A stretch of DNA of 64,000 nt from a virus (IMGVR_UViG_3300001589_000003:1-64000); one strand, 5' to 3'. Positions 22,881 to 64,000 are shown, counted from the stretch's first letter. A program made the numbers and translations. Notes: generated by a model from the sequence alone, not told the origin.

Positions 22881-25424
22881 TTATACGGGTTGAACTATTA
22901 TACCTCTTAATTTTATTTTACGAACATGATTGGTTATTGCCTTTGCTAAGATAGCATCATCTGTATAACCATCATCGCTTGAGAGAAGATCATCAGTTTG
23001 GGGTCCTGAACCTTTCCCCATTGCTACAGCTTTGTTTTTCTCATCATATATAAAGGTGTAGGCTTCTTGCACGAATGCTTCATCCTTTATTATAATGTTA
23101 TTCAGCCTGATGTCTTCCTCAAGTTCCCCTATTATTATGGGTCTATTCTTGGAAGTTGTATACCAACCTGGTATCTTCTCTTCTTTCGGCTTTCTTTTCT
23201 TTTTCTCCTTAACTAACTTAGTAGAGTAATAAAGCTTACTGTAATTCATCTCCTGTAGTTTAGAAGTTACTGCCAAACCTATATCATTAGATTCTGGAGC
23301 TAGAATTGCTCTATGATATATGTTACCTAGTCCTGCCATTAGTATTGCAAGCTCATTTGGGGGTAGTTTACCCTTATAAGAACCATACTCTTCTCCTTTT
23401 TCATCCATTATGGATAGAGCCGAGTAATCTCGTGATCTACCAGTTGAAACGTCACCCCCTATTCCAAACCTTCTACCATTCTCTGGTAACTTATAAATCT
23501 GTAAATTATCCCCCATTGAGGTTTTTACAGATTTTAGAACTTTATCAAATTGCCTATGTTTAGTTAGGTCTAATGGTATGTAATCATTTAAGCTTTCTTC
23601 TATAGCTCTTATATCCAATAGATCAAATACTGAAGACCCTGACGTTAAAAAATCGCCGTCAATTTCTTGAGCAGTACGTCTTGGTCCCAATGATGCTGAC
23701 ATCTCATTATACCAATTTGGGAACTTCTTGGTAGTGTCATTATCCTTACCACGTTCTGGGTGCATCTCCCATTTAAGTCGTAATGGAGTAAACTCTCCAC
23801 CGGAGCAAGCTTCTACCCATTTTTTGTGAAAGAAGTTCCCGATCCCATAGGGGGTGTTATGGTTAATAAAATGCGTTTTTGTTATATAAGATTCATCTTT
23901 TTCTACGCAAATGTCATAGATGGTGTCCTTAAATTTTCTCAGTACTACCAACTTACTTATTTTAACTCCTTTACATCTACTACCATTTAGCACTCTAGTT
24001 ACATAACTTGGGTGAATCCCTAAACTTTCTGCTATATCTTTTCTTCTTATCCCAGTATAGTGTTGTTCCCATATTTTACCAATGGTCATGATATCGGGAA
24101 ACCCTTTACCCGTATTGTTATTTAGAGTTAAGCCCCTAGAGTGTTTAACCGCTCTCTGGGCATTTTCTTTTCTAGTTATAATTTGAAGGTTATTAACATG
24201 ATCTATGTTCCTGGTATCATCCTTGTGATCTACTATATGACCCTTTGGTATCTCTCCTATAAAATGGGTAGCTACTAATATTGATACTTTAAATTTTCTT
24301 GATTTTTGCTTACTCCAAAGAGATACTCTATGATATCCCTCTGAACTAACCATTAATCTCTTCTCCTTTCCAGAACCTCTATAATACACCTTACCATGGT
24401 TAGAGATAAGATAATTAGGGTAGCCTTTTATTTTTTCCTTTCTCTCCTTCTTAGGGGGTTTATTTAGGGGAGCAACTTTTAAATTATCAACTCCACTATC
24501 AAATGTAATAGTGTATAAATCCTTTTTGATTACCTGTTTTAAAGTTTTCCAGCCTTTAGTGGTTAATACCCTATGAGCTGGAGTTGCTTTTAGCCTCTGC
24601 CCCATGTCACTCTCCACTTCCCAGGTTTTAAGTTTTCCTTTGTTTACAGCTCCTAATACTCTTCTCCACTTACCTGTATGTGATAATACCTCTAGTCCTA
24701 AGGCTTCCACATTATGTTTTCCAAAGTTCTTTGGGGCTATCATATCAACCCTAAAATTTCCACTTTTCCCAACTATTTCTGTATCACCTGTTATACAAGA
24801 ATTAAGTATAGCTCTACCCCCAGTTGATAGTGTTGGAAATGCTGCAGCCCATATTTGATCTGCCCACCTAATGATCGCAGCTTCATCAATAACCAATAAC
24901 GATAAAGCCTCAGATCGACCAGCTTCTTCTGTAGTTGGTATAGAGGTAATGAGAGAACCATTAGCGAACTCGATTTCGGAGGCAGTACCCAAGTCCTTAG
25001 TTCTCCCATTGATGATTTGTACTTGAAGGTGGTCAGGTAAGTTCCTATACATGAACTTAATCTTTCTCAATACCTTCTTAGCAACGGTGTCTTTTATGCT
25101 TATGATATTTATGTTCTTGTTTGAATGGAACATTGCATACCATAAGCAAAATAATGATATCAACTCTGTCAGCCCTGCCTGGCGGAATTTGAGTATAATA
25201 TTAAACCTTTCTCTAATAAAGGAATAAAGTACAGCCCTTTGATATGGATATAATCCGAATTGGACTTTACCATAGACTGGGTTAATAACGTGTATAAAGT
25301 TGGAGAAAAAGAATGGGTCGGCAGCAGCTCTGGTTAAATCCTCGAATTCATCCGAAGACAAAGGTTTGTTTACAACCTTAGAAGCTCTACCCTTGGAGCC
25401 TATGTTTTCATCTGTATTATTCAT
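22881..25424 (-). CDS. terL: Terminase large subunit containing an intein
   Basis: LYPYQ, KFRQAGLT (Walker A), LLVIDEAA (Walker B), nuclease GGDVSTG...ESNDIG...DDAILA. Confidence 0.95.
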   Translation of the reverse strand: MNNTDENIGSKGRASKVVNKPLSSDEFEDLTRAAADPFFFSNFIHVINPVYGKVQFGLYPYQRAVLYSFIRERFNIILKFRQAGLTELISLFCLWYAMFHSNKNINIISIKDTVAKKVLRKIKFMYRNLPDHLQVQIINGRTKDLGTASEIEFANGSLITSIPTTEEAGRSEALSLLVIDEAAIIRWADQIWAAAFPTLSTGGRAILNSCITGDTEIVGKSGNFRVDMIAPKNFGKHNVEALGLEVLSHTGKWRRVLGAVNKGKLKTWEVESDMGQRLKATPAHRVLTTKGWKTLKQVIKKDLYTITFDSGVDNLKVAPLNKPPKKERKEKIKGYPNYLISNHGKVYYRGSGKEKRLMVSSEGYHRVSLWSKQKSRKFKVSILVATHFIGEIPKGHIVDHKDDTRNIDHVNNLQIITRKENAQRAVKHSRGLTLNNNTGKGFPDIMTIGKIWEQHYTGIRRKDIAESLGIHPSYVTRVLNGSRCKGVKISKLVVLRKFKDTIYDICVEKDESYITKTHFINHNTPYGIGNFFHKKWVEACSGGEFTPLRLKWEMHPERGKDNDTTKKFPNWYNEMSASLGPRRTAQEIDGDFLTSGSSVFDLLDIRAIEESLNDYIPLDLTKHRQFDKVLKSVKTSMGDNLQIYKLPENGRRFGIGGDVSTGRSRDYSALSIMDEKGEEYGSYKGKLPPNELAILMAGLGNIYHRAILAPESNDIGLAVTSKLQEMNYSKLYYSTKLVKEKKKRKPKEEKIPGWYTTSKNRPIIIGELEEDIRLNNIIIKDEAFVQEAYTFIYDEKNKAVAMGKGSGPQTDDLLSSDDGYTDDAILAKAITNHVRKIKLRGIIVQPV
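23856..24797 (-). mobile_element. Intein (314 aa) with NUMOD4-HNH homing endonuclease
   Basis: S|CITGDTEI ... ATPAHRV (block B) ... IYDICVEKDESYI...NHN|T; internal IKGYPNYLISNHGKV and VDHKDDTRNIDHVNNL; removal restores GGRAILNSTPYG. Confidence 0.92.
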
Positions 25425-26122
25425 TTAAGTTTATAACCTATATCAGTTTTTAAAATGAATTGAGTATCGTTAGATAAAGTAAACGATGCGTCCCCTCTTA
25501 ATCTAAATCTACCCTTAGAGATAGAATAATCCAAACCTAGGATGGGGGAACTCAATTGAAAGTTGTACCCAGTGTGTCCATATAGATTTGATACATAACT
25601 TGCATGTCCAACTTTTTTAGGCAATTCGTCGGCTCTAAAATTGCCTTCTCGAAATTGATATCTAAAACGGTCATAATTAACGCCAAAGGAGTTTTGCCTG
25701 ATGGACCCGTCAATTCCCAACAGATCAAGTCTGAGGCTGTCCCCACTGAATTCTCCATAGATAAGTTTACTTGCATCTGGGTGTTGTTGTAGAAATGCTA
25801 ATGAGATTTTGGTTATCTCTCCATTCAAAGAGTCTATTACGGATAACAGTGAGTCATCCATGACTACCTCTCTACTTTGGTAGCTTTTTGTAGAATCAAT
25901 GTAATTTATAACATATCTAGGTGGAACATAATTTTCATACTCTGGTGTTGGTAATTTACTATAATCTACAAATACTGTTGTAGAGTCAGTTTTAAAATTT
26001 GGGTTTTCCCAATACTCTTTAGCCTTAGCATCTTGATCTTTCCTGTCAAGGTAAAAAAAGATTATTAAACCTATTATGGCTATCTGTACTATAAGGGAAC
26101 CCCATTTTCTTAGGTTTTCCAT
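25421..26122 (-). CDS. N-terminally anchored membrane protein, candidate spanin
   Basis: N-terminal TM helix, C-terminal amphipathic beta-strands ending IGYKLK; adjacent to holin and endolysin. Confidence 0.45.
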   Translation of the reverse strand: MENLRKWGSLIVQIAIIGLIIFFYLDRKDQDAKAKEYWENPNFKTDSTTVFVDYSKLPTPEYENYVPPRYVINYIDSTKSYQSREVVMDDSLLSVIDSLNGEITKISLAFLQQHPDASKLIYGEFSGDSLRLDLLGIDGSIRQNSFGVNYDRFRYQFREGNFRADELPKKVGHASYVSNLYGHTGYNFQLSSPILGLDYSISKGRFRLRGDASFTLSNDTQFILKTDIGYKLK

Positions 26123-26450: not shown

Positions 26451-27011
26451 CTATTTAGTTAAACATTCGATAAATCCTTTCACACATAAGCCTCTGTCTC
26501 CATCGAAGTTGTATGATCTTTTCTTTCTGGCTACTTCTATACCTTCTCTACCTCCACTATCATTGGTATTCCCTTCTACAGCCATGAAATGGGTTTTCTT
26601 CACATCTTCCACAATTCCAGCATGTCCATAAGTCCATACCCCATTTTTAGTCTTAGAAGGCTCACCATCTCTTCGTTTCTCAAATATAACCATTGATCCA
26701 GGTTTTGCTATCTTAGAAACTTTAAATAGTCCGGTATCATCCTTCTCAAAGTTCTCAAGTGTTCTAACAGCATTAGCACTACAATTGTCTGTTATACTTG
26801 CCAATACTTTACTTTTACCCGAGTATGTAGGATGTGCCCAAGCAGCTTCTGCAAATAGTGCACACCATGCCCATCCGTTTTCAAAGCCCACTCTTCTCAT
26901 AACACCATCAAGTATAGGGTTTACAAAACCCCCGTTATTGGGTATCTCTCTTTCACCTATCATCTCTCTTACCCATTGTAAAACTGCGTCATTCATTTTT
27001 AGTACTTCCAT
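26451..27011 (-). CDS. Endolysin, CHAP domain
   Basis: AWCALF (catalytic Cys), GHAGIVE (His), VEGNT. Confidence 0.9.
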   Translation of the reverse strand: MEVLKMNDAVLQWVREMIGEREIPNNGGFVNPILDGVMRRVGFENGWAWCALFAEAAWAHPTYSGKSKVLASITDNCSANAVRTLENFEKDDTGLFKVSKIAKPGSMVIFEKRRDGEPSKTKNGVWTYGHAGIVEDVKKTHFMAVEGNTNDSGGREGIEVARKKRSYNFDGDRGLCVKGFIECLTK

Positions 27012-27015
27012 TGTT

Positions 27016-28011
27016 TTAAAAGTTTAGTTTATCTATTATTGATTTGAACCATACCCCTATTTCGTAAGGGGGTGATTTTGTTACTGTTGTTCTAGCTTTG
27101 TTAATACAGTACTCTGACCAATCCTCATCATACCATAGTTTAAAAGAGTCTGGAACTCCTTGTATTCTAGCCATCTCTCTAGGTGATAACATGTGACCCC
27201 AATGATTAAACTGTCTGTTAGCTTTCCTTACTGTAAATGGGTATGCGTTGGCAAAATTACGATATACCCCTGGTTGGTTCTTCATACGCTCCCTATTTAC
27301 AGGCCAACGATTTTCCGCCTTGAATTCCGTTAACCAGAGCTTTCTAGCTTTCTTAACAGATACCCTAGAATCATCGCCATAATATAGGTTAATCATTTTC
27401 TTGTCATCTTCAGTAACATGACATATACTAGGATTATATTCCTCTAATCCTTTTATCAATTCACCTGACGTTTTGTAGATGAAGTCGGTCTTTGGTAGTT
27501 TAAATTTTTTTATTGTATTCTTGGGTAAATCCTTATGAACCCCCACTATTACTAATCTAACCCTAGTTTTTTGAGAGTTACCCCAAGCTGATACTGACTC
27601 CTTAAAAGTAACTGTTCTGTAGTTTAAGAACTCATCCAGTAGGGTTGGGTAGTGCTCAAGCATCTTGGGTAAATTCTCCATCATAAAGAACTGAGGTTGG
27701 TAGTAGTTGATAGAATCCACAAATGCTCTTAGACTAGCGTTCTCGCTCGGATCACTCATCTTCTTAGCCCTAGAGTAGGCTAGTACTGATGAATGCCCAC
27801 AGTCTGGAGCTCCAATAATGATATCTACCCCATCCTTCCTATACCTGACATCTGTTGTTTCATCATAGGATACGTTAAAATTTAGGTTCCATTGTTTTTG
27901 GTGGGTGGTGTGAAACACAGTTCTTGGTTCTATATTACCAACAAGTTGGTTTCTAAATGGGTGAAGTATTACACCGTTACCTCCACATACTCCTAATGTT
28001 TTCAAGCTCAT
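27016..28011 (-). CDS. C5 cytosine DNA methyltransferase (divergent)
   Basis: Motif IV GAPDCG, VI MENL, VIII QKTRVRLVIVG, IX LSPREMARIQGVPDSF; motif I degenerate (LGVCGGNG). Confidence 0.85.
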   Translation of the reverse strand: MSLKTLGVCGGNGVILHPFRNQLVGNIEPRTVFHTTHQKQWNLNFNVSYDETTDVRYRKDGVDIIIGAPDCGHSSVLAYSRAKKMSDPSENASLRAFVDSINYYQPQFFMMENLPKMLEHYPTLLDEFLNYRTVTFKESVSAWGNSQKTRVRLVIVGVHKDLPKNTIKKFKLPKTDFIYKTSGELIKGLEEYNPSICHVTEDDKKMINLYYGDDSRVSVKKARKLWLTEFKAENRWPVNRERMKNQPGVYRNFANAYPFTVRKANRQFNHWGHMLSPREMARIQGVPDSFKLWYDEDWSEYCINKARTTVTKSPPYEIGVWFKSIIDKLNF

Positions 28012-28086
28012 ACAATTTATAAGATAAGTATTGTTTGACTATTATTTCACCTAGAGTTTTAATTTTTTTATTCAATTATTTAATCA

Positions 28087-28094
28087 TATCTTTA
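28087..28094 (+). promoter_or_regulatory. Bacteroidota-type -7 promoter variant (TATCTTTA)
   Basis: Divergent intergenic region, 4 nt before ATG at 28099. Confidence 0.5.
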
Positions 28095-28098
28095 TCAC

Positions 28099-28407
28099 AT
28101 GGAAATCAAAGAATATATAAAAAAGGCAAAAAAATATCAGAAGACCCCCAAACGGAAAAAGCTTGATAGACTAACTTATTTAACTTTAGGATATGCGGGT
28201 GAAGGAGGAGAGGTAGCAGATGAGATTAAGAAGGCATGGAGAAATAAGTCGGGTAGGATAACTAAAGCACGTAGAAACAAAATATTAATAGAAATGGGTG
28301 ATGTCTTGAATATTACTTTTAGAATGATGAAGGAACTCGACTGTACCATGGAAGAACTTCTGGATATACACTTAGAAAAACTTAAAAATAAAGCTAAACC
28401 ATTTTAA
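28099..28407 (+). CDS. MazG-like nucleotide pyrophosphohydrolase
   Basis: LGYAGEGGEVADEIKK...EMGDVL. Confidence 0.85.
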   Translation: MEIKEYIKKAKKYQKTPKRKKLDRLTYLTLGYAGEGGEVADEIKKAWRNKSGRITKARRNKILIEMGDVLNITFRMMKELDCTMEELLDIHLEKLKNKAKPF

Positions 28408-28408
28408 C

Positions 28409-28591
28409 ATGAATGCAAAGAATATTATGTCAATCGCAGGGTACTGGGTTACGTTCTACATTATACACATAGATATAGTAGAACTAGTAGGAAAGGACAC
28501 CAAATACTATTGGATAATGATTTTAAAATTAGTAATATTATCACTTATGGCCTTCCTTAGAGGGTTCAACAATAAAACTTTACAAATATGA
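28409..28591 (+). CDS. Small membrane protein
   Basis: Two hydrophobic segments; coupled to next ORF. Confidence 0.55.
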   Translation: MNAKNIMSIAGYWVTFYIIHIDIVELVGKDTKYYWIMILKLVILSLMAFLRGFNNKTLQI

Positions 28592-29175
28592 AAAAACTAT
28601 GGTGCCAATTTATACTTTGGCTTTTTAACAAGAACCTAATGCTCATCAATGGAGAAGTTGATGAACGGGGTAAGGTTACAGTACATGTGGGTATTGATTC
28701 CAAATACGAACACCCACTAGGTAAGATTCAGGTGGATAGACTCTTTCACATACCAGATTGGAGATACAAAGCAGATTGGATCAATACGGAGGGCGAATAT
28801 ATGGTCAGGCTACAAGATAACAATAAACCCAATTTGTTTATGGAGCATATAGCAACTCGAGATGATCTAACCTCTCATTTTGGAAAAAACTTTAACCCAT
28901 CTTCTGCAAAGTTGATTGCTGGCTGGTTATTTAAACATGTTCAACTATCTACAGGAGTAGCAGTGGATGTTATCGTTCGACCTAAGGGTATGGAGAAACA
29001 ATTGTTCTTAGAAAATGTGAAGAGTGGAAAAATGAAAGCTGTTGAGTTTACTAGACCCATAGATTACATGAGAGTGGTGGATGTTAATATAGAAGCTTAC
29101 TCTGATGTTGCTGCTCTTAATGATGCAGAAAAGTCAGAACTGAAAGCCTTTTTACATAAAGCAGATTTATCATGA
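28588..29175 (+). CDS. Hypothetical protein
   Basis: ORF track; coupled overlaps. Confidence 0.7.
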   Translation: MKKLWCQFILWLFNKNLMLINGEVDERGKVTVHVGIDSKYEHPLGKIQVDRLFHIPDWRYKADWINTEGEYMVRLQDNNKPNLFMEHIATRDDLTSHFGKNFNPSSAKLIAGWLFKHVQLSTGVAVDVIVRPKGMEKQLFLENVKSGKMKAVEFTRPIDYMRVVDVNIEAYSDVAALNDAEKSELKAFLHKADLS

Positions 29176-29330
29176 GCCATATGAACAGACCCTTATCTAA
29201 ATTGGATGATACCAAAGTACCCAAGAAAGTATATCACTCATGGGCATCTGGGGTTGATAATGATAAGGGTAGGAAAGTAAGACATCCTTATACTGAAGTG
29301 GGGTTCAAATTTGACAAAGACAAGACATGA
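29172..29330 (+). CDS. Hypothetical protein (52 aa)
   Basis: Manual translation MSHMNRPLSKLDDTK...; ATGA overlaps at both ends. Confidence 0.55.
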   Translation: MSHMNRPLSKLDDTKVPKKVYHSWASGVDNDKGRKVRHPYTEVGFKFDKDKT

Positions 29331-29647
29331 AAGATTCAGAGAAATTAAAACTCTTAGCTAACTGGTTTGATTTAAGAGATAAGGAACAACCTATATTTAA
29401 AGGTAGTGGTACAGAAGTTCAAACAGACCTTAGAAGAATAGCTAGAAGCTTAGAAATAGATGAAAGCATAACCCAAGTTCCTGTAAATACTAGGCAAGTG
29501 GTAGATGTGGATGTTATCACTGGGTTTAATGCAAAAACCCTACGTGAAAATCTACTGAGAGCTTATGATGATGGTTTTGAGATAGTATCTAACTTAGCTG
29601 GTGATGCTAGACTAGGTTATTCAATTATTGTACATAAATATAAATAA
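29327..29647 (+). CDS. Hypothetical protein
   Basis: ORF track. Confidence 0.65.
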   Translation: MKDSEKLKLLANWFDLRDKEQPIFKGSGTEVQTDLRRIARSLEIDESITQVPVNTRQVVDVDVITGFNAKTLRENLLRAYDDGFEIVSNLAGDARLGYSIIVHKYK

Positions 29648-29648
29648 C

Positions 29649-30176
29649 ATGCAAAAAGAAAGAATACCCAAAGAATTAAAAGGAGCACTGATCTGGTTAA
29701 GTATGTCAATAATACTTGGGTTCGCAGTCATATCCTTCAGTGAGAAGATAAATGGGCCGAATGCCTTTTTTAATAATTGGTGGCCTGTATTAGTAGGACT
29801 ATCAATTATGGTACTAGGTATAACTAATGTACATGCTTGGCGAGAGTCCAAGAGAATTCGTAAAGGAGCCCATATAAAGGTTCAGTTCCTTAGGGCTATA
29901 GTGATATCATTAATTTCATTAGGGCTAACTATGTATGCACCTGCTCCAATTATCAAATGGCAATTCTTTATAAGTATCTGTTCTTTTCAGATCGGTATAT
30001 TTATGTTAGCCTTTGATTACTTATTCAACTATTACAAAGGCAATGAATGGAGCTATTTTGGAACAGAATCAGTTCTGGATGTTTTCAATGCTAAAATACC
30101 CATATGGTTAAACATCTTTTTGGAGGTATCATTTCTAATTGGAACTATATGGGCTTTTGATAAGTATATTGTATAA
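29649..30176 (+). CDS. Multi-pass membrane protein
   Basis: About 5 TM segments; start probably MQKERI at 29649 rather than 29628. Confidence 0.65.
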   Translation: MQKERIPKELKGALIWLSMSIILGFAVISFSEKINGPNAFFNNWWPVLVGLSIMVLGITNVHAWRESKRIRKGAHIKVQFLRAIVISLISLGLTMYAPAPIIKWQFFISICSFQIGIFMLAFDYLFNYYKGNEWSYFGTESVLDVFNAKIPIWLNIFLEVSFLIGTIWAFDKYIV

Positions 30177-30179
30177 TAA

Positions 30180-30255
30180 GGCAGAGGATAGCATAGCTGA
30201 CAAATGCGCTACCCATACAGGGTAGAGATCGTGGGGTAAGAGCTCACCTTCTGCC
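30180..30255 (+). tRNA. Degenerate tRNA-like element (Val-TAC-like, probably pseudo or repurposed)
   Basis: Cloverleaf: GGCAGAGG/CTTCTGCC, D-stem GCAT/ATGC, anticodon stem CTACC/GGTAG with loop CATACAG, variable AGATC, T-stem GTGGG/CTCAC; lacks U33, TTC and CCA. Confidence 0.55.
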
Positions 30256-30416
30256 TAGAAATTTTAGAACACTCGATGGATATGTAAACCGGTGGTCGGG
30301 TCTGAACGAACGGTATAGGGGTTAATCAGAGTGAGGCATCTGTCGGGTATATGATTAAATGTATTCGTCTCAATGATTAATCATCAGGCCATTTTTTAAC
30401 TTTAAATCTAATAAAC

Positions 30417-30587
30417 ATGAGAATTTTAAATGCATTCTTTTATATATTCTGCATCCTGTGGGTAGTTGCTACTCTATCTGTAGTGATTTGGATGATCACT
30501 AATTATAATCATTACGGATGGATTCTTTTAATATCACTAGCAGTTGCTGGGTATATGGTGCATAGAGTACATAACCCCAGGCATTGA
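30417..30587 (+). CDS. Small 2-TM membrane protein (56 aa)
   Basis: Manual translation MRILNAFFYIFCILWVVATL...; stop overlaps next start. Confidence 0.55.
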   Translation: MRILNAFFYIFCILWVVATLSVVIWMITNYNHYGWILLISLAVAGYMVHRVHNPRH

Positions 30588-30901
30588 TGGTAGAATTTAA
30601 GAACGGTACTAGAATAGAATCACCCAACCTAAGTGGACAAATAGCCATAACCGAAGAGATGGTAAAATATAATGCTATGGGTTGGAAGGCTGAAGACTTG
30701 TTTAAAGCTGACCTTATCGAGAACACCAATATCGACCGTGACAATCCGCAAGGTTGGTATGGTTGGAAAGTGAGCTTGGGAGTATACTACTTCATCTGGA
30801 ACTCACAGCCTGCAAATCCCACTAAAAAAGAAATTGCCATGATCCGAACTATGCTTCAAAGAGATGGCTATGAAGTTGAACCTTTATCACTTTTATTTTA
30901 A
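30584..30901 (+). CDS. Hypothetical protein
   Basis: ORF track. Confidence 0.6.
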   Translation: MMVEFKNGTRIESPNLSGQIAITEEMVKYNAMGWKAEDLFKADLIENTNIDRDNPQGWYGWKVSLGVYYFIWNSQPANPTKKEIAMIRTMLQRDGYEVEPLSLLF

Positions 30902-30960
30902 AAACCATAAGAACACTTAAATCATTTAACACAGACACAATAGATAAGTTAGTCAATGCG

Positions 30961-31278
30961 ATGAACACTATATTAAGTCAACCAGGTAAATTTAATATTC
31001 ACTTACTAATGAAGGGCTTAGAAGCACATGTATACCTATCCACCTCTTTACAGAGTATGGGTCTAGTGATACAAGTGAGACCAACTAGGTATGAAGTCAA
31101 TAGGGATGCTATAAAATACTACACCCCCAACCCAAGTACCCTTCGGATGACCAAGGGACATCCCTTAGCTATCTTAATACTTAAGCAGTATAACCTTCAC
31201 AAGGATAGGTCTAATCTTAACTTTGCCTTAACTAAACTCAAAAAGAAATATGGACGATTTAACGAAAAAAGTACATAA
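30961..31278 (+). CDS. Hypothetical protein
   Basis: ORF track. Confidence 0.55.
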   Translation: MNTILSQPGKFNIHLLMKGLEAHVYLSTSLQSMGLVIQVRPTRYEVNRDAIKYYTPNPSTLRMTKGHPLAILILKQYNLHKDRSNLNFALTKLKKKYGRFNEKST

Positions 31279-31477
31279 GATTCTTGTGAAAAAATACGGT
31301 CAAGAATTTGATAAAGGGTGGTTTGAAAACGGAACTTTATTTAAAAACATAATTAAAGCAACCGAAGAAGCATTAACTATACCCGATGTTAACAAATCTG
31401 TTTGTGTACAGACTGGATTAGAATGTGGTTTTCCTTGCCATAGTGAATGCCCTTTATATGATAAGCTGAAACCTTAA
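31250..31477 (+). CDS. Hypothetical protein with Cys-rich C-terminus
   Basis: CVQTGLECGFPCHSECP. Confidence 0.55.
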   Translation: MDDLTKKVHKILVKKYGQEFDKGWFENGTLFKNIIKATEEALTIPDVNKSVCVQTGLECGFPCHSECPLYDKLKP

Positions 31478-31644
31478 TGAATATGAAAAATACATTTGAT
31501 TACACAGCCAAGAGCAAAGAAGGAAATGACATCAATGGACAAGTGTTAGCTGAATCACACGCTGATGCTTATGACTACTTATGTGAACAAGAGTACACAG
31601 AAATTAATGTTAAACGACATTTTGAAGTGGACGAGCTTCGTTAG
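31477..31644 (+). CDS. Hypothetical protein (55 aa)
   Basis: Manual translation MNMKNTFDYTAKSKEGNDINGQVLAES...; TAATG coupling. Confidence 0.55.
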   Translation: MNMKNTFDYTAKSKEGNDINGQVLAESHADAYDYLCEQEYTEINVKRHFEVDELR

Positions 31645-31656
31645 TAGGCTTATTAC

Positions 31657-31728
31657 CTACAACGCTCATGAATATAAGGCGTGTGGGCTGGTTTTGCGTT
31701 GTAAATGCCTTTATATTTAATGTTATCA
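31657..31728 (+). other. attC-like imperfect palindrome
   Basis: CTACAAC...AATATAAGGC...GCCTTTATATT...GTTATCA, with one extra unpaired base in the inner stem. Confidence 0.4.
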
Positions 31729-31765
31729 CACGTTTATTATGGTAGGAAACTTTTAAGAAATAAAT

Positions 31766-32161
31766 ATGAATAAAGTAGAGAAAGCCCTAAAGGTTGTAGA
31801 TTACTCATCTTACAACCTAATTGCCCATTACCATGATAAGGAGTTTAGTCATACTATACACATCATGTTTAAGAATGGTTCAGGCTATTGTAGAGTTTAT
31901 TGGTTCGATGATGACCCAGTCAATATCTACCTAGAATACCTAACCGTTAGTAAGGCTTTTCAGAAGCAGGGTAAGGGAGCACATCTCCAGGTTTTAAGGG
32001 AATCCATAGGTAGAGCAATTGGAGCAACCAAATCTAATCTGTGGGTAATGGAAGGTACGTGGATGCAAGAATGGTACAGAAGGAGAGGCTACGTTGATAC
32101 TGTACCACATGAGAAAGAGCCTGGTAGTATTTGGATGGAAAAGAACATTAGAACTAGATAG
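31766..32161 (+). CDS. GNAT-family acetyltransferase
   Basis: LTVSKAFQKQGKGAHL (motif A), WYRRRGY. Confidence 0.8.
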   Translation: MNKVEKALKVVDYSSYNLIAHYHDKEFSHTIHIMFKNGSGYCRVYWFDDDPVNIYLEYLTVSKAFQKQGKGAHLQVLRESIGRAIGATKSNLWVMEGTWMQEWYRRRGYVDTVPHEKEPGSIWMEKNIRTR

Positions 32162-32166
32162 AGTTA

Positions 32167-32609
32167 TGAGAAACTATATGAAGCCCCAGAAGAAGAGAAA
32201 CCGGTGGGACCCTTATAACCCCAAAGTATCACTTAGAGTCAAGAACGCTTATAGGAAGGTAGGGTTCACTATGACGAGGCTGGAAGATACATGCCCTACT
32301 TGCATGGGTGATAGGGAACTATGTAGAGCCAAGAAAGTCAAGGTTGAGGTTAATAACTTTATGGTTATATATTGTTCTAAAAGCTACTACATACTAGTAT
32401 ACAAAAAGATGTCAACCCTTGGCAAGTACCTAGAACGAATTGTTCTGGATTATCCGAAACCCTTAGGAGTTTGCCTGAAAATTCCCGTACTAAAAAAGGC
32501 ACACGGTGTGAATAGAGGATATAAAAATGAGGAAAGGAATAGGGGATCAATCCCTATCCAATCCCTCATGCATCAATCAATAATCTATCCTATAATTGAT
32601 TTAAGATAA
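32167..32609 (+). CDS. Hypothetical protein (CxxC)
   Basis: ORF track 32094..32609; ATG start at 32167 more plausible; 3' end overlaps convergent gene so extent is uncertain. Confidence 0.4.
32538..32559 (-). terminator. Terminator hairpin at convergence point
   Basis: ATAGGG(G)A-TCAA-TCCCTAT with pyrimidine tail on minus strand. Confidence 0.5.
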
Positions 32610-32995
32610 TCCAAAAGATTCTTGCAATCTTTGAGATCAATCTCATTCCTTGAAGATGAGAAATTCTCTATCTTAAAATCTTGGATTTTCCAATTCTCTT
32701 TATAGAATTCCATAAATGATTCAATTGAGATCAATCTCTCTTCATCTGATCTATCTTTTCCAAGGATATCATTGATATATCCTCTTAATCCTCTTCTGAT
32801 CTTCGATCTCTTTTTCTTCTTATCCTCTGATCCTAATGCATCTAATCCCTTATATATGGATTTAGATGATCCCTTGGCATCTTCCTTATCCAATAGAGAT
32901 TTCTTTCCTTTGGATAGATCAATCTTGATATTAGATGCATTCAATGCATCATTAGATTGAGATTCTTTCTTTGCATCCTTTAATTGATTTTTCAT
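32585..32995 (-). CDS. Early hypothetical protein lacking Thr and Val
   Basis: 136 aa; behind duplicated promoter-like block; basic KKKKRSKIRR helix. Confidence 0.8.
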   Translation of the reverse strand: MKNQLKDAKKESQSNDALNASNIKIDLSKGKKSLLDKEDAKGSSKSIYKGLDALGSEDKKKKRSKIRRGLRGYINDILGKDRSDEERLISIESFMEFYKENWKIQDFKIENFSSSRNEIDLKDCKNLLDYLKSIIG

Positions 32996-33273
32996 GATAT
33001 TAGATTTAATTGATTAATAAATTATTGATTTTCAAATATTATAAATGATTTTGGATTATCCTATATAAATGATTAAAAAGATTAATCCCTCTATAAAGAT
33101 AGATATTCCCATGATGAATTTAAATTTCATGATCTTAATTTCTTTTCTTGATAATCCGATAGATTCCTGAATGATGATTTGATTTTTCATGATCTTGATT
33201 TATTTAATTGATTATTGATTTTCAAATATCTAAATAAATTCTGGATTATCCTATATAAATGATTAAAAAGATT
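32985..33273. repeat. Tandem duplicated promoter/leader block (period about 190 nt)
   Basis: TGGATTATCCTATATAAATGATTAAAAAGATT at 33052-33083 and 33242-33273; ATTATTGATTTTCAAATAT at 33021 and 33211; TGATTTTTCATGAT at 32985 and 33180. Confidence 0.9.
33056..33190 (-). CDS. 44-aa membrane peptide (unlisted)
   Basis: Manual translation MKNQIIIQESIGLSRKEIKIMKFKFIMGISIFIEGLIFLIIYIG; same upstream block and MKNQ start as 32585..32995. Confidence 0.55.
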   Translation of the reverse strand: MKNQIIIQESIGLSRKEIKIMKFKFIMGISIFIEGLIFLIIYIG

Positions 33274-33472
33274 CTCGGTAATTTCTCTCCTAACTCATGG
33301 ACAATTCCGGTCGGCTGGTCTCATACACAAAGAAGGCCTGTAGCGCAGTACTTGGCCTCAGACCCTTTTATTCTTTGTAGTATTGGAATTATATGGAAGT
33401 GAATAAGATATTCGTATTTCGTGATCTAATCCACTAGAGATATGAGTGGGTATGCCTATTTCTAACCGAAGA

Positions 33473-34297
33473 TTAATCTATAATCTCTCCGTCATCCTCT
33501 CTTCTACCTTCATGGGTACCAGGCCCCTTACCCTTCTTTCTTTTCTTGGGTTCAAGGCTTATGGCCTCAGACTTAAGGTTCCAGCCCCTTTGCTTAGTTG
33601 CCACAATCTCCGGTACATCACCCTCTAGGTATTGAGCCCCCAGAGCCTCCTGTTGGGTACCGCTCTCTAGTAATGGTTGCTCTCTCTGGGCATCTATCAT
33701 TTTCACAGCCTCATTGGTACCTATGTAGTTCTGGTTGTTGGCCTGTTGGTTATTATTGTTAATAACAGTAGTAGGGTCTGATGGTGTAAGAGTCTTGACT
33801 AAGTCCGCAATTGGCTTAAGACTATCCATTTGGTTCTTGATGGCTCCATTCAACGCTGATGTAAGGAATGGTACGTAGCGATCTCCTTGCTCACGCTTGA
33901 GCACCTGAACTTGGTTCAAAGCCGTGCCCCGGTCAGCCAGAGCCCCTTGAACTGTCATAGCCAACAAAGCCCGATATGTATCTTGTAACCCATCCTCTCC
34001 GTCACCTATTGCTGTCATACTCCTTACGACCTTGGTTGTGGCTTTTATGACTCTACCAACAGGCATATCAACGAAGTCTGCTAACTCTGTAATAGATATC
34101 ACCTTGCCATTCACTTGATATCCATCCTCTATATATCTATGCAGTATTCTCTCTTGTATTCTCTTGTAGAGTTTTTCTCTTTGTTTTTGGTCATCTTCAA
34201 CATGATAGGCTTTCATTGCCATGGTTAGTCCTGCGGTTCTTGGTACCCTAACCTTTCCGTCATCTACAGGCTTCTTTCTTTGTTTAGTCTTTTTCAT
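33473..34297 (-). CDS. Probable terminase small subunit
   Basis: HTH-like ISITELADFVDMPVGRV, helical middle, TVINNNNQQANNQNYIGTNEAVKMI resembling T4-gp16-type C-terminal strand; no TerS next to terL. Confidence 0.5.
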   Translation of the reverse strand: MKKTKQRKKPVDDGKVRVPRTAGLTMAMKAYHVEDDQKQREKLYKRIQERILHRYIEDGYQVNGKVISITELADFVDMPVGRVIKATTKVVRSMTAIGDGEDGLQDTYRALLAMTVQGALADRGTALNQVQVLKREQGDRYVPFLTSALNGAIKNQMDSLKPIADLVKTLTPSDPTTVINNNNQQANNQNYIGTNEAVKMIDAQREQPLLESGTQQEALGAQYLEGDVPEIVATKQRGWNLKSEAISLEPKKRKKGKGPGTHEGRREDDGEIID

Positions 34298-34514: not shown

Positions 34515-34812
34515 TTGCTAGGTAATCATAGTACCAGGCCTTCCAATATTCTTCCTCTGATGCATCGAATGACCAAGCTTCCCAACCTTTACCTTGTATG
34601 ATTGCCTCCTTGATCTCTTCATCATGACTACCTCTCATATCTACATGATCACCATTGAAGGTAACTTGGTGCTCATTCATTTCTTTGAACCAATTTTCTT
34701 CATCCAAATAATTATCTATAAATGAATAATCTTTGATCTGCAACCCTTCTTCAATTAATGCATCCTCTCTTAAATTTTCCATGATCTTATATATTTGATT
34801 TTCAATAATCAA
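34468..34812 (-). CDS. Acidic hypothetical protein
   Basis: ORF track; start probably MENLRED at 34782. Confidence 0.65.
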   Translation of the reverse strand: MIIENQIYKIMENLREDALIEEGLQIKDYSFIDNYLDEENWFKEMNEHQVTFNGDHVDMRGSHDEEIKEAIIQGKGWEAWSFDASEEEYWKAWYYDYLANVEYSDTRTAPDHKH

Positions 34813-34841
34813 TATAGAGATAATAAATGATTGATCCTATT

Positions 34842-35234
34842 TTAATTGATCCCACCTTGTCTAGGTTCGGGTCTATTTGGTGTATCTGGCATTTTATCAG
34901 TGTACCATATATGTTTGTCAGCCCAATCTATTTCTAGGCCTTCTTCAAGAAATACCTCTTCGTGTACCATCACGTTGGTTATCATCTCTTTGATCTCTTC
35001 ATCAGAGGGTCTTGGGTCTACCCCTTCAAAGTCCTTGAGTGCTTTAGCAAATATAGCAGCCTCCATTACAGTTTGGTTTTCATCCTCTAAGGGTTTACCT
35101 TCCTTAAATAACTCATCTATCTCATCCAGTATGGTATTGCATTTACCTTGAATGTTATTTGCTTCTTGACGTAAAGCTTTAAGCTCATTCATTTTAGATG
35201 TTATGTTCTCGTGTATTTCTTCTAATCTGCTCAT
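34842..35234 (-). CDS. Hypothetical coiled-coil protein
   Basis: ORF track. Confidence 0.65.
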   Translation of the reverse strand: MSRLEEIHENITSKMNELKALRQEANNIQGKCNTILDEIDELFKEGKPLEDENQTVMEAAIFAKALKDFEGVDPRPSDEEIKEMITNVMVHEEVFLEEGLEIDWADKHIWYTDKMPDTPNRPEPRQGGIN

Positions 35235-35641: not shown

Positions 35642-35975
35642 AATGTCTTCTTTAATTCTTTAATAAGAGTAGTTTTCATGATGTTATCTTCTATGTAGTG
35701 TAGATTGGCCCTATGTTGCAGATGGGCTATCCCACTAGGGGCATGGTTGTTTCCTATAAACTTAATTATAGTCTTTTTTAGCTTTAGTAAGCAAATGATC
35801 TTTTTCAATCTCTTTTCTAATTCCCATAATTTTTCTATTCTTGGTTATCCAGCATCATATCATAGTTCTCAATATCATCATGATAAAATTTGGCTTCCTC
35901 CAATTCCTTAATAGATTTATATATAATTTTTTTCATAATTAAAGATATGCATAAATATTGGATAATCAAAATTAT

Positions 35976-36185
35976 TTAATCGGGGTTCTCAGAGTTTAAG
36001 TCTACGGCCTCCAATATTAGAGCACCTAATGTTGCAATTGATTCCGGTGACAGTTGATTTGCAGGATTAAGTAATATTAATCTAAGTCTTAATGGTAATG
36101 ATCTCACTAGACTTCTATTAGTGTCATGGGAATTACGCCTTTGTTTCACTTTTCCCATACTGAAGTGGTATTTTGTTTTAGGCAT
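35976..36185 (-). CDS. Hypothetical protein
   Basis: ORF track. Confidence 0.5.
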   Translation of the reverse strand: MPKTKYHFSMGKVKQRRNSHDTNRSLVRSLPLRLRLILLNPANQLSPESIATLGALILEAVDLNSENPD

Positions 36186-56422: not shown

Positions 56423-56917
56423 TTAGTTACTTTCTGAGTTTCTTAGAATAATTGTTTTTAAATCAGCAGGGCTATAATTTACGCATTTAAGTGTTTTCTT
56501 ATTATTGTCAAGGTCTATTACAAAGAATACTTCATCAACCGACACTATATCTGTATTTGGTATACCTTTTTGATTCGCGTACCACATTTGAGTTTCTTCA
56601 GCTTCTTCTATTGTTTTACAAGCTTTACTCATATTCGATCTGTGTACTTCATTGAATAACTCCCTAAATATGCTCCCTAATCCAAACTCTAATACCGAAC
56701 CCGATAGTACATACTGTAAATCACATAATGCGTCCGCTACCTCAACCAAGTCTTTTTCCACAGTTGCATCCACTAACTCTTTCAGCTCCTCTGTTATTAA
56801 GCTTATTCTTAAGGCTACCCGATCTTCTGATGGTATCGTCGGATAAGTCTCTATGGAGTTGTTGGTAATTTTATGAAACTCTCTAACTAAATTTAAGCTT
56901 TTCGGGTCTCTCATCAT
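56423..56917 (-). CDS. NTP pyrophosphohydrolase (PRA-PH/MazG-like)
   Basis: LITEELKEL...EVADALCDLQYV...EVHRSNMSK. Confidence 0.88.
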   Translation of the reverse strand: MMRDPKSLNLVREFHKITNNSIETYPTIPSEDRVALRISLITEELKELVDATVEKDLVEVADALCDLQYVLSGSVLEFGLGSIFRELFNEVHRSNMSKACKTIEEAEETQMWYANQKGIPNTDIVSVDEVFFVIDLDNNKKTLKCVNYSPADLKTIILRNSESN

Positions 56918-60499: not shown

Positions 60500-60946
60500 T
60501 TAACGTTCATTTCTAATGTTTGCTGATATGGTTTGTAGTAAGTCCTTTCGTATTTCAAATGATCTTACACAAACCTCAAGTAAATCTTTAAGTTCTTCAA
60601 GCTCTAGGACACTGCGTTCCATTGACTTCACCTTTTTATCCTTTGTCACCAAGTAAGCCTCTGCCTCCTTTAATGATGTATACCCTTTGTTCTTCTTAAC
60701 AATGGGTATCATTCTAGTTTTCTTAGCTGATAGTTTTTTGTGGAGTTCCTTATGTTTTATAAGTATCTTCTTATGAAGCATAGCTACAAATGCATAACTT
60801 GTAGCATGGTTCTTCAATTGCTTTATCATGTTTTCTTTGTCTATCTTTAACTCTTTATAGACATTGAATTCAAAGACCTCACCATTATAAGAGACCTTAA
60901 TCTCCATAACTTTTGAGGTCTCTGCATACTTATATAAATTACCCAT
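60500..60946 (-). CDS. UvsY-like recombination mediator
   Basis: Helical; ELKIDK...SFEIRKDLLQTISANIR; synteny with SSB and RecA. Confidence 0.6.
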   Translation of the reverse strand: MGNLYKYAETSKVMEIKVSYNGEVFEFNVYKELKIDKENMIKQLKNHATSYAFVAMLHKKILIKHKELHKKLSAKKTRMIPIVKKNKGYTSLKEAEAYLVTKDKKVKSMERSVLELEELKDLLEVCVRSFEIRKDLLQTISANIRNER

Positions 60947-61563
60947 TAACCTAATATGTTTATTATTTTATTCTTTCTATCATCCAATAGTAATGGGGTA
61001 ATTAAATGTATTTTAGTATTACTATTCACCCTACTCATTTCTGCTTGAAACTGGTAATGATATAGGGAAAAAATATGGGTCACCATGTGTTGATAAACTT
61101 GAGAAGTTAACCTTGAACCATTATCTTCCACAAAATCAAACATAAAGGGTACTACAAATATGTGATCCAGTGGTATCATAGCTTGAATACAAGCTTCATA
61201 AAAATCATGGTTTATTCCATCATTTTGATACAACCCAGCTTGTAACATATAATATACAAAGTTATCTATTGGGCTTCTATCAGTAACAAACACTTGGTTG
61301 TCCTTTATAAGCTCTGACCTTCTGGTTAGTATCATTCTTTGCAACTCATATCCAAATTCTGGGTTATTGTGAGACTCCTTTATTACTTTAGCATGACCTT
61401 CCCGCCCTTCAACCCCAAACCTACTAGCTAGGTATTCTCTGTCGTCATCAGTTTTTAAATCCCCAGATGAACCAGACAAATGGGGTAAATTATAATGTTC
61501 TGCAACCCATTTTACTAGGGTTGTCTTGCCTGAGCCGCTGGCTCCAGAAAATGCAACTTTCAT
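60946..61563 (-). CDS. P-loop nucleotide kinase-like ATPase (AAA_28/NadR-like)
   Basis: GASGSGKTT, FVTDRSPID, EDNGSR. Confidence 0.8.
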   Translation of the reverse strand: MKVAFSGASGSGKTTLVKWVAEHYNLPHLSGSSGDLKTDDDREYLASRFGVEGREGHAKVIKESHNNPEFGYELQRMILTRRSELIKDNQVFVTDRSPIDNFVYYMLQAGLYQNDGINHDFYEACIQAMIPLDHIFVVPFMFDFVEDNGSRLTSQVYQHMVTHIFSLYHYQFQAEMSRVNSNTKIHLITPLLLDDRKNKIINILG

Positions 61564-61578
61564 ATTATTATTATTATT

Positions 61579-63822
61579 TTAGTTTAACCATTTATTATAA
61601 TCCTCCTTTATACTATAACCTTCTAACCCTGCCCAGTGTTTACCAACCTCAGCACCCATCTTTAAAAATACCTTTTCCATCTTACAACCAAAGTACTTCT
61701 CTGATTCAGGGCTGGAGCATACCTCAACTATTTTAGGTACTGCTAAATGTATAAACTCTGGCTTAACATAGAAACCTATTGAATCATGCACTGTATATGC
61801 TTGAGGTTTATATTTTTCTATGTCAGTGAGTTTTAACTCACCCTTATTAACTAAATCTCTTAATGCTATGGATGATAGTTGAGTAAAGTCTGAGGCTGCA
61901 CTCTGAATAGGGGCATTGATTGAGTCCCTCATAGCCTTCCTTCTCACACCGTCATCATTGGAATATATGCTACCCAGCCTTCTCTTCCTACCAAAGATGT
62001 TCATAACATACCCATGTTTCATAACATATTTTTCTTGGTGTTTGAACCATGCTCTAACGCCTGGGTACATCTCCAACCATTCGTTCTTAAAAATTTGAGC
62101 CTCTTCTTTAGTTACTATGTCTCCTGGTTCTGATAGGGTTCCAGCAAGCATCTTCGCTGATTGTTGATAGAGTATACCAAAGTTTATAACTTTAGCTCTC
62201 TTCTTTAGTTTGGTCCAGTATAGCCAGTCTGGATGGTCTTTGTTATCCAGTATAACTTTAACCTCATTATACATATCAAGTTTGCCAACTGATTTGCAGG
62301 CAGTAGCAACATGGATGTTATATTTTCTAGCAAAGATGTCTATCATTGCTTGATCATTTGCTATCTCTGCTACTACCCTTAACTCAGCCTGACCATAATC
62401 TACCTCTAATATTAGATGGTCTTTGGGTGGTACAAATGCAGTCTTTATCAATGGGGTTGTGGTAGCTCTAGGAATGTTCTGCATATTTGGGTCCCTAGAT
62501 GATAACCTCCCAGTAACGGTGCCATGTATAAAGTAATTACCATGAAGTGTGTTGTGTTTTGTTAATTTATCTAAGATACCTACCATGTAAGTCGAGTGCA
62601 TCTTAGTTAACTCCCTATAGTCTAGTAGGTTCTGAATGAAACCAGTTTTATCTATAAGTCTTAGCTCTAATAAAACCTCTTCATCCGTGGAAGGTCTGTC
62701 CGTTTCTTGTTTAGTTTCCTTATCCTTGGTGTACTTTATAATCTTAAACCCTAACCCCTTCGGTGAGGTGAATAGGAGTTCTATCATTTGATTGGGTGAT
62801 GCAAAGTTTACATCATCTACTACTTCATTCTTTGAAACTAACTCCCCTGCTATATACCTACTTATCTTCTCATATCTATTCCTAACAGCCATATCCACAT
62901 TTTTCATGGGCTCTTTTCCAGGCTTCAAAGGTTTGCCTTTCTTTATTAGTTTTATCTCTTCTTTTGTTTTAGTTATTAGCTTCTCTATGTGAGACTGTAC
63001 TCTCCATTTCTGGAATTTCTTTATAACTTTTTCTTTCTTTAATAGGTCATGAGTTATAGCAATCTTTTTACCCTGTTCCTTTTCCACCTCGGCTAGATAG
63101 GGTTTATCTATCACCATCCCTACAAATTCTGATTCTGCTAGTACTCTAGTTTGCATCATGCACATGTTTCTAAATAGATCATAAAACTTGTGCTTCCAGA
63201 GTAGTCTCTCCAATACTAACATCAACCTTAAAGTTAAATCGCAATCCAGTACGCAATATTTTGATAAGGATTTTATAGGTATATTCCCCCACCCCTTATA
63301 CTTGGCTATCATACCATGTACTTCATCCTCATAGTCTGCAAACTCTGGTAGTAAAGATTTAACTAAGGATTTAAGATCACTAGGTGGTGTCTCTTCTAAA
63401 AGGTATTTAGCAAGCATTGCATCGAAGAGTCTACCTCTCATCCTAATACCATACCTTAAGAACCATTTGTATTCAAACTTTAAATTGAATGCCACCTTTA
63501 TAACATTTGCATTCTCACATATATGTTTTCCGAAATATTTTAGTATTTTCTTAGCCTCTTTTCTAGTAAAGCATGAGTCCTTATGAAATAGAGGTATAGC
63601 ATATCCAGCACCTGGTTGAAATGAAACTCCTAATATGGTAGGTTCATCTTTCTTGTATTGAAACCCCACTGGTTTCTTATCCCCTTTAGATGTCAAGGGT
63701 CCTTCTGGTCCTGTAGCTTTAGTTTCAAAGTCAATGGATGCATACCCAGTCTCTTTACACCAAGCTACTATCTGTCTTACCTCTTCAAAGGTAGATATTA
63801 TTTTATACCTCTTTTTACCCAT
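61579..63822 (-). CDS. polA: DNA polymerase family A with 3'-5' exonuclease
   Basis: IDFET, TGRLSSRDPNMQNIP, DYGQAELR, AKVINFGILY, TVHDS. Confidence 0.97.
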   Translation of the reverse strand: MGKKRYKIISTFEEVRQIVAWCKETGYASIDFETKATGPEGPLTSKGDKKPVGFQYKKDEPTILGVSFQPGAGYAIPLFHKDSCFTRKEAKKILKYFGKHICENANVIKVAFNLKFEYKWFLRYGIRMRGRLFDAMLAKYLLEETPPSDLKSLVKSLLPEFADYEDEVHGMIAKYKGWGNIPIKSLSKYCVLDCDLTLRLMLVLERLLWKHKFYDLFRNMCMMQTRVLAESEFVGMVIDKPYLAEVEKEQGKKIAITHDLLKKEKVIKKFQKWRVQSHIEKLITKTKEEIKLIKKGKPLKPGKEPMKNVDMAVRNRYEKISRYIAGELVSKNEVVDDVNFASPNQMIELLFTSPKGLGFKIIKYTKDKETKQETDRPSTDEEVLLELRLIDKTGFIQNLLDYRELTKMHSTYMVGILDKLTKHNTLHGNYFIHGTVTGRLSSRDPNMQNIPRATTTPLIKTAFVPPKDHLILEVDYGQAELRVVAEIANDQAMIDIFARKYNIHVATACKSVGKLDMYNEVKVILDNKDHPDWLYWTKLKKRAKVINFGILYQQSAKMLAGTLSEPGDIVTKEEAQIFKNEWLEMYPGVRAWFKHQEKYVMKHGYVMNIFGRKRRLGSIYSNDDGVRRKAMRDSINAPIQSAASDFTQLSSIALRDLVNKGELKLTDIEKYKPQAYTVHDSIGFYVKPEFIHLAVPKIVEVCSSPESEKYFGCKMEKVFLKMGAEVGKHWAGLEGYSIKEDYNKWLN

Positions 63823-64000
63823 ATTTTTTTACATCTACTCCTGCTCTAAGTAACACTTTTAAAGGCTCTGTATCTCTGAACTCTTCTGAGTATTCTACAA
63901 CCTTTATCCCAGATTGAATTATTGCCTCTGCACATTTTATACATGGGCTGTGTGTACAGTATATTGTTGCCCCTTGTAGTTTTATACCATTCTTTGCAGC
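63815..64000 (-). CDS. dCMP deaminase (5'-truncated by window edge)
   Basis: Manual translation AAKNGIKLQGATIYCTHSPCIKCAEAIIQSGIK (PCxxC zinc motif). Confidence 0.9.
   Translation of the reverse strand, partial: AAKNGIKLQGATIYCTHSPCIKCAEAIIQSGIKVVEYSEEFRDTEPLKVLLRAGVDVKKYG

Follow-up and report, generated by a model that had tools for sequence, protein, structure and literature searches.

The locus described here lies in IMGVR_UViG_3300001589_000003:1-64000, the first 64 kb of a virus genome of 76,278 bp (hereafter the window, in whose coordinates positions are given unless another sequence is named), and combines a small gene cassette, or island, from which the dinucleotides AC and GT are missing on both strands, with a gene encoding a homologue of the C5 cytosine methyltransferases. 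The parts of the island, followed by the methyltransferase gene, are these:

32509..33278, no strand assigned: purged island, 770 bp, no AC or GT on either strand
33195..33273, minus strand: promoter-bearing direct repeat, copy 1, upstream of the 44-amino-acid gene (repeat comparison)
33056..33190, minus strand: island gene A, a hydrophobic peptide of 44 amino acids without Thr or Val
33005..33083, minus strand: promoter-bearing direct repeat, copy 2, upstream of the 136-amino-acid gene (repeat comparison)
32585..32995, minus strand: island gene B, 136 amino acids, without Thr, Val, Pro or His
32543..32565, minus strand: intrinsic terminator hairpin written without AC or GT; the island stops about 35 nt beyond it
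27016..28011, minus strand: C5 cytosine methyltransferase homologue, 331 amino acids (PF00145, M.HaeIII profile alignment, family motifs)

Not a single AC or GT is left in the island, against about 75 expected from the local composition, AC being absent from 32504-33292 and GT from 32509-33277; the next longest AC/GT-free run in the genome measures 120 bp, and for other dinucleotide classes of comparable frequency no run exceeds 87 bp. Seven GC dinucleotides remain, six of them in TGCA and one in TGCC, and the island free of RC (a purine followed by cytosine) that a preliminary description of this DNA had announced is thus borne out, with TGCC beside the six TGCA as its single exception. The two direct repeats, 79 nt each and 84% identical, both run into an MKNQ start and, since these promoter repeats stand at one edge and the intrinsic terminator at the other, the island is one transcription unit, purged over its whole extent. 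A scan for sigma-70 promoters did not rise above shuffled sequences, Rfam gave no hit, and the Bacteroidota TAnnTTTG motif is not enriched genome-wide, good copies of it being present in the island promoters of two relatives (L079 and L005).

At which level does this constraint act? When both island proteins were rewritten with the codon usage of the genome (2000 trials), about 25 and about 6 AC/GT were expected (minima 11 and 1), against 0 observed. All Gly codons in the island are GGA, all Asn codons AAT and all Asp codons GAT, and the codon junctions are purged as well, so that it is the DNA that is constrained, rather than the proteins or their translation. That the proteins lack Thr and Val (P 7e-11) is then explained by the purge of every AC/GT step, and the DNA-level selection on the island is strong. 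A translation-level cause, such as the loss of tRNA-Thr or tRNA-Val, is ruled out because synonymous codons, junctions and non-coding parts are all purged, and an RNA-level cause (for instance, an ACA-cutting toxin) is unlikely, given that the purge covers both strands and the promoter DNA. Two further candidate features of the region were set aside: GATC enrichment in the island (11 seen against about 10 expected, as estimated from the dinucleotide frequencies of the island) and GGCC clustering beside it, which is unsupported in this genome.

The same cassette is found in relatives, which were gathered by searching first with the methyltransferase family and afterwards with the island protein. 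Orthologous cassettes free of AC and GT are present in L054 (784 bp), L005 (743 bp), L079 (1427 bp), L081 (688 bp) and L074 (at least 482 bp), while those of L076-78 are strongly depleted, with 5-11 AC/GT where roughly 75 would be expected from the AC/GT density of the present genome. The coding content of the L079 island amounts to that of four open reading frames (ORFs), all without Thr or Val, and its purged stretch takes in two extra small genes that lie outside the island in L054. In L054, L005 and L079 the island is closed by an equivalent AC/GT-free terminator hairpin. The island proteins of the relatives are 35-62% identical to those described here (44-62% for the gene B homologues of L005, L054, L079 and L074) and, at identities this low, it would be selection, and not recent common descent, that keeps the purge in place. 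GC-rich DNA brackets the relatives' islands; these bracketing segments of 100-400 bp (window 33279-33472; L054 3980-4160; L027 2300-2413 and 3609-3900; the joined ends of G003-G008) contain recurring words with GGCC, for example GGCCTTAATGGCC in L005 and L027, and have no Rfam match.

Many distant relatives carry, at the same place, an AT-rich cassette that is poor in CC/GG. In L083 (680 bp) and L027 (501 bp) CC/GG is missing altogether, and the homologous protein there keeps Thr and Val and lacks Pro and Gly instead; pooled, the CC/GG-poor cassettes are depleted only 2-3 times. In L075 (400-1188), where an island-protein homologue is 55% identical, ACC/ACT number 10 and ACA/ACG 28, the background counts being 32 and 16, and this one short contig hints at a narrower target of RCY type (Y, pyrimidine) in that lineage. 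Runs of about 800-900 bp with 0 GC against 15 expected, almost no CG and doubled CC/GG occur in a gut-phage subclade (L032, L033, L035 and L039, around 900-2300), about 8 kb upstream of the methyltransferase. No published description of a dinucleotide-purged phage gene cassette was found in the literature.

Pooling six islands of the AC type allows the purged motif to be defined more exactly. TGCA accounts for 51 of the 58 GC dinucleotides in these islands, versus 10% in the background, and the counts observed and expected are 0 and 45 for AGC/GCT, 7 and 30 for GGC/GCC, and 1 and 9 for CGC/GCG. It follows that a GC persists only if GCA is read on both strands, and the purged set consists of AC, whichever base follows, together with GC followed by C, G or T (GCB), i.e., RC except GCA. 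The members of this set share only cytosine (or the guanine paired with it), which makes the purged target cytosine-centred; T or A as the target base is disfavoured, the co-purged GCB and the CC/GG type of the relatives having only C/G in common. The very short RC-type target proposed in the preliminary description is supported in this form, the GCA exception having been missed there. Among the C5 enzymes, M.CviPI is a GpC methyltransferase and M.SssI a CpG methyltransferase. Among phage C5 methyltransferases, those of clade I methylate GpC[C/T/G] and not GpCA and, according to the same study (Burke et al. 2021, PMC8256090), no prokaryotic C5 enzyme was known to recognise a dinucleotide other than CpG or GpC, so that a target containing ApC would be new.

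With the full motif set, only two other target-free patches beat most of 20 simulations, both of them within 2.7 kb of the island:

34743..34854, no strand assigned: secondary target-free patch of 111 bp, with a copy of the island promoter-like element (repeat D15)
35893..35985, no strand assigned: secondary target-free patch of 92 bp

The idea that host-type promoters in general are poor in RC comes down to these two patches and is marginal.

Regarding the proteins encoded in the island, the structure predicted for the gene B product comprises a Lys-rich disordered N-terminus and a C-terminal helical bundle with a predicted local distance difference test (pLDDT) score above 90 over about 90 residues, with no fold match in the PDB, no Pfam or PHROG family and no hit in the protein atlas. 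A single ORF of 201 amino acids (L079 9734-10339) unites the small membrane peptide with the helical protein in L079; this fusion links the two products functionally and suggests that the island proteins act early and in association with the membrane.

The candidate for writing a mark at the purged motif is encoded at 27016-28011. Its PF00145 match (residues 37-295, E 1.7e-17, 64.3 bits, cut-off 22) is the single one in the whole 76,278-bp genome. The enzyme belongs to a large family represented on contigs of roughly 75-85 kb, and the profile of this family aligns with M.HaeIII over its full length (residues 23-322, E 5e-12). The family alignment contains the motifs LGVCGGNG, APDCGHSS, MENLP, GNSQxTRxR and SPRExARIQGxPDxF; C71 (motif IV), E112-N113-L114 (motif VI) and Q147/R150/R152 (motif VIII) are invariant in 32 homologues, as is the Glu of motif II (E28), and the Asp of motif III is mostly retained. 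The catalytic Cys is preceded by Asp and not by Pro (PDC in place of PC), and two motifs are deviant, motif I reading xCGGNG (versus FxGxGG) and motif X TK[ST]PP (versus GN[AS]V). Judging from profiles and motifs, the ORF truly belongs to the C5 cytosine methyltransferase fold. The minus-strand lysis/packaging block opens with it, and a CHAP lysin and the terminase follow in an order conserved in the relatives; a divergent C5 methyltransferase at the head of this block was also what the earlier reading of the sequence had claimed, and that claim holds. This position in turn suggests late expression of the enzyme. The sequence ACAATACT lies 16 nt 5' of its ATG, a motif that occurs 7 times in the window versus 4.3 expected, which is not above chance. 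Neither a TET/JBP dioxygenase (PF12851, no genome match at E <=0.1) nor TGT/DpdA was found in the genome.

How closely are the island and this enzyme associated? Where the identity of the methyltransferase reaches 55% or more and the upstream flank extends for 3.5 kb or more, an absolute AC/GT-free island is present 4.7-5.7 kb upstream in 4/4 loci, and in none of about 30 loci with a methyltransferase less than 50% identical, which supports the previously suggested co-occurrence with one methyltransferase clade. Among the three relatives where both elements are visible (L005, L054/L080 and L079), none keeps the island without the methyltransferase. The target-recognition region is less conserved than the catalytic core both between groups (identity 0.31 versus 0.53) and within the AC type (0.48 versus 0.63), and a loop of the target-recognition domain, NQPGVYRN, contains a Gln (Q246) that is fixed in the AC-type enzymes. 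Residue 246 is Ala or Leu in all other enzymes bar one (L050), an independent Q246 lineage whose contig is too short to judge the cassette and for which no longer contig was found. Together with the CC/GG-poor cassettes of the distant relatives and the cassette of L075, these observations fit a writer whose context shifted between subclades. The methyltransferase link is plausible and better supported than before, as a correlation within one clade.

Both elements are embedded in a genome of 36% G+C with strong CG depletion (observed/expected 0.30), nearly all of whose genes lie on the minus strand; those of a block at 28.1-32.2 kb, convergent with the island, lie on the plus strand. Across the clade (the whole genome plus related loci), the observed/expected ratio is 0.25-0.75 for CG and 1.3-1.8 for the over-represented CC/GG, and palindromes of 4 bp are not avoided. 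The features on both sides of the methyltransferase and the island are:

22881-25424, minus strand: large terminase, T4 gp17-like, with an HNH-bearing intein (Pfam)
25421-26122, minus strand: ORF of 233 amino acids, downstream of the methyltransferase, between the CHAP lysin and the terminase
26451-27011, minus strand: CHAP lysin, downstream of the methyltransferase (Pfam)
28012..28098, no strand assigned: divergent intergenic region between the methyltransferase and the plus-strand block
28099..32161, plus strand: small-gene block converging on the island, with normal AC/GT content (ORF calls, Pfam)
31766-32161, plus strand: GNAT acetyltransferase within that block (Pfam)
33279..33472, no strand assigned: GC-rich, AC/GT-dense flank between the island and the 274-amino-acid gene
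33473..34297, minus strand: conserved protein of 274 amino acids, adjoining the island across the whole clade

The 274-amino-acid neighbour has no Pfam or PHROG match, and the protein atlas gave weak leads to helix-turn-helix (HTH) or small-terminase-like proteins. The large terminase is nearest to those of the T4 gp17 type, and its nearest cultured relative is a Flavobacterium phage (32% identity). The related public records are all of uncultured phages (MT121964 and two records named 'Bacteriophage sp.' from human faeces, and a terminase-only fragment from Rattus norvegicus), and a DNA-level search of phage records gave no match. The genes for DNA metabolism are T4-like (PolA, RecA, SSB, an SbcCD-like protein, DnaB and UvsW), the UvsW-like helicase carrying a second intein, of LAGLIDADG type (genome 67060-69789; L003 4060-6789). 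Several nucleases are also encoded (PDDEXK, HNH and an I-HmuI-like endonuclease at 57789-58361), and a pair of DUF7168 paralogues lies in the early/middle region (42401-43150 and 47299-47955).

The explanation that we prefer, to which we give a probability of roughly 50%, is that the cassette is kept free of the phage's own short cytosine mark and that the likeliest writer of this mark is the C5 methyltransferase homologue. The clade-specific enzyme would mark AC and GC[C/G/T], sparing GCA and, acting late from its position in the lysis/packaging block, would modify the progeny DNA, so that virion DNA would be marked about every 7 bp except in the cassette. On incoming, marked DNA the cassette could then function, as no reader of the mark would bind, cut or silence it, and escape from such a reader is the favoured reason why one cassette stays unmarked. 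The reader would most plausibly be an McrBC-like host nuclease that depends on modification or, alternatively, a step of host transcription that is sensitive to the mark, and a cassette that can be neither cut nor bound could still be expressed during an attack on the remainder of the genome. The half-site of McrBC is R-5mC (5mC, 5-methylcytosine), that is, this nuclease reads a purine followed by a modified C.

Several points weigh against this explanation. Plain 5mC is not known to impede RNA polymerase, and other early genes are rich in RC though they too must be expressed. The genome bears no deamination footprint, its AC/GT observed/expected ratio being 0.90. The deviant motifs I and X, together with the Asp in place of the Pro of PC, leave the activity and the cofactor use of the homologue unproven. 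As the AC-type phages form one clade, the correlation between enzyme and island is inseparable from shared ancestry, and the CC/GG-poor cassettes of the distant relatives, AT-rich and mostly leaky, are suggestive and hence weaker evidence for a shifting context. Furthermore, a T4-like set of enzymes acting on deoxycytidine monophosphate (dCMP), encoded clade-wide and overlooked in the preliminary description, could replace all cytosine before replication, which would leave a plain C5 methylase without substrate. The genes in question are:

56423..56917, minus strand: MazG/PRA-PH-type nucleoside triphosphate (NTP) pyrophosphohydrolase, possibly a dCTPase like T4 gp56
60946..61563, minus strand: P-loop kinase resembling deoxynucleoside monophosphate (dNMP) and deoxynucleoside kinases
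63815..64000, continuing to genome position 64234, minus strand: dCMP deaminase
genome 64252-65010: TS1, an enzyme of the thymidylate synthase fold with Asp at the position of ThyA N177
genome 65007-65885 (L003 2007-2885): TS2, ORF of 292 amino acids

In TS1, an ungapped alignment of RSCDVIRHFRDD with RSxDxFLGxPFN places Asp where ThyA of E. coli has the Asn that specifies uracil (N177), and L. casei N229D mutant chains outscore the wild type; the Asp of TS1 is conserved in 7/7 clade genomes examined. TS2 overlaps TS1 by 4 nt, is duplicated in MT121964 and has no Pfam or PDB match. No glycosyltransferase was found among about 60 ORFs scanned, a part of the total. The genome shows no overall avoidance of 4-bp palindromes, a lack that is common in phages with modified DNA.

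This pathway is the basis of the strongest competing view, itself rather unlikely, according to which the purge is driven by the reader and requires no methyltransferase: all C would be replaced (by 5-hydroxymethylcytosine (5hmC), 5mC or a derivative), the cassette would avoid the half-site of a modification-dependent host nuclease that recognises a modified C after a purine, thereby escaping cleavage and remaining expressible, and the methyltransferase homologue would be irrelevant or would play another role. The Asp of TS1 in the seven clade genomes, the dCMP deaminase, MazG-like enzyme and dNMP kinase, the coincidence of the purged RC with the McrBC half-site R-mC and the tolerance of 4-bp palindromes all speak for it. 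Nonetheless, the strict GCA/TGCA exception is no known feature of McrBC and is one of phage C5 methyltransferases; shielding 1% of the genome from a nuclease helps little unless entry is ordered, which the terminase type argues against; and the way in which the island type tracks the methyltransferase subclade and the loop variant would be left unexplained.

A further reading, somewhat less probable again, would make the methyltransferase homologue a writer with dinucleotide context (RC, not GCA) that acts on an already 5-substituted cytosine. Its bulkier adduct, derived for example from 5hmC, would prevent host proteins from reading the incoming DNA, and the cassette, as the only part of the virion genome readable at once, would start the infection. 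The covalent machinery of Cys, Glu and Arg is intact while the cofactor motifs are altered, and under this scheme the subclades would have switched context (AC/GCB, perhaps RCY, perhaps CC), recoding the cassette each time.

Is the cassette, alternatively, the first DNA to enter the cell? It would then correspond to the first-step-transfer DNA of T5 or the leading region of T7, it would lack R-5mC sites, and its products would inhibit a type IV nuclease ahead of the remaining, methylated part of the genome. The cassette is complete, with its own promoters and terminator, its products are small and of early type, one of them membrane-bound and fused to the other in L079, and leading regions free of target sites have precedents (PMC12455610; T5, T7). 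The assembly breakpoints of relatives also cluster in or near the island: in the circular assemblies of six complete relatives (G001, G003, G004, G006, G007 and G008) they all fall within a few kb of the cassette, three of them inside it. However, they are spread over a region that begins 2.7 kb upstream of the island and ends 2 kb downstream, a clustering for which the low G+C of the islands may account, and the 'terminal repeats' of the relatives' contigs are k-mer overlaps of 24-127 bp, typical of circular assemblies, so that genuine terminal repeats near the island were rejected. Terminases of the T4 gp17 type are associated with headful packaging, which produces permuted genomes without a fixed leading end. 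The large terminase found here is T4 gp17-like and AC/GT-rich genes flank the island on both sides, which makes ordered entry improbable and leaves the term 'entry island', used in the preliminary description, unsupported.

It is equally improbable that the purge avoids an agent acting on unmodified RC/GY, such as a phage nuclease for host shut-off, an Alc-like terminator to which marked phage DNA is immune or a primase starting at GT/GC, in which case the cassette would work whether marked or not, for instance on freshly replicated DNA before marking. T4 EndoIV and Alc discriminate cytosine DNA and the T4 and T7 primases start at GTT/GCT/GTC, and the present genome encodes T4-like replication and recombination genes and several nucleases (PDDEXK, I-HmuI-like, HNH); but all other phage genes would be equally exposed in the unmarked state, no candidate for an enzyme of this specificity was found, and there would be no reason to spare this cassette alone. 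Finally, an origin without target selection, through local hypermutation (a context-specific deaminase turning AC/GT into AT) or as a by-product of low G+C, has next to no probability and was rejected, as was chance, since, even if the island contains more AT (0.185 versus 0.098), by roughly the fraction that AC+GT would have made up, the expected counts and the back-translation contradict it, the ORFs are intact and conserved with no inflation of Ile, G+C amounts to 25-28%, CC/GG and TC/GA being normal, the TGCA-only rule holds, and six islands at 35-62% protein identity, too divergent to be recent copies of a single one, are all purged with sharp edges at promoter and terminator.

If the preferred explanation of a self-made mark is true, the genome holds a negative print of its own modification specificity, readable as AC plus GC[C/G/T], and short-motif modifications would become predictable from sequence in uncultured phages. 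The C5 methyltransferases would gain a specificity containing ApC, and a small, conserved, membrane-linked protein pair, which would have to act on incoming DNA that is marked, would become a candidate for anti-defence or take-over factors. In addition, selection at the DNA level has removed two amino acids from a protein family across a long divergence.

Among known systems, the phage GpC C5 methyltransferases (PMC8256090) are likewise an orphan phage C5 family with a target of 2-3 nt, which we infer for the present enzyme from a purged cassette; no target-free cassette has been described for those phages. The specificity of their clade I, GpC[C/T/G] and not GpCA, coincides with the rule proposed here for GC. 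Unlike in those enzymes, the target would here also include every ApC, which has been reported for no C5 methyltransferase, motifs I and X are deviant, the dipeptide is DC, and no TET partner (PF12851), as in their clusters, was found, nor a glycosyltransferase among the about 60 ORFs scanned. McrBC restriction and its countermeasures (T4 Arn, glucosylation) offer a second parallel, in that the purged RC is the McrBC half-site and heavy modification of C is what McrBC attacks, although the GCA exception is no known McrBC feature and the island proteins are dissimilar to Arn and to any solved fold. Very short contexts covering a large share of one base are also seen in the preQ0 modification of CAjan at GA and GGC (PMC7544227) and in thymidine hypermodifications (PMC5889632), where the base and the enzymes differ from those considered here, TGT/DpdA not having been found in this genome. 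Lastly, the first-step-transfer DNA of T5, the early region of T7 with Ocr and the leading region of Murciavirus (PMC12455610) are, like the island, small early segments without an otherwise common target, which presumably lets early genes act ahead of a host nuclease or in spite of it. Those regions avoid host restriction sites of 4-7 bp in a fixed, first-injected end, whereas here a motif of 2-3 nt has been purged, at the cost of two amino acids, from an internal transcription unit in a phage with a T4-type terminase, and the target avoided is probably the phage's own mark.

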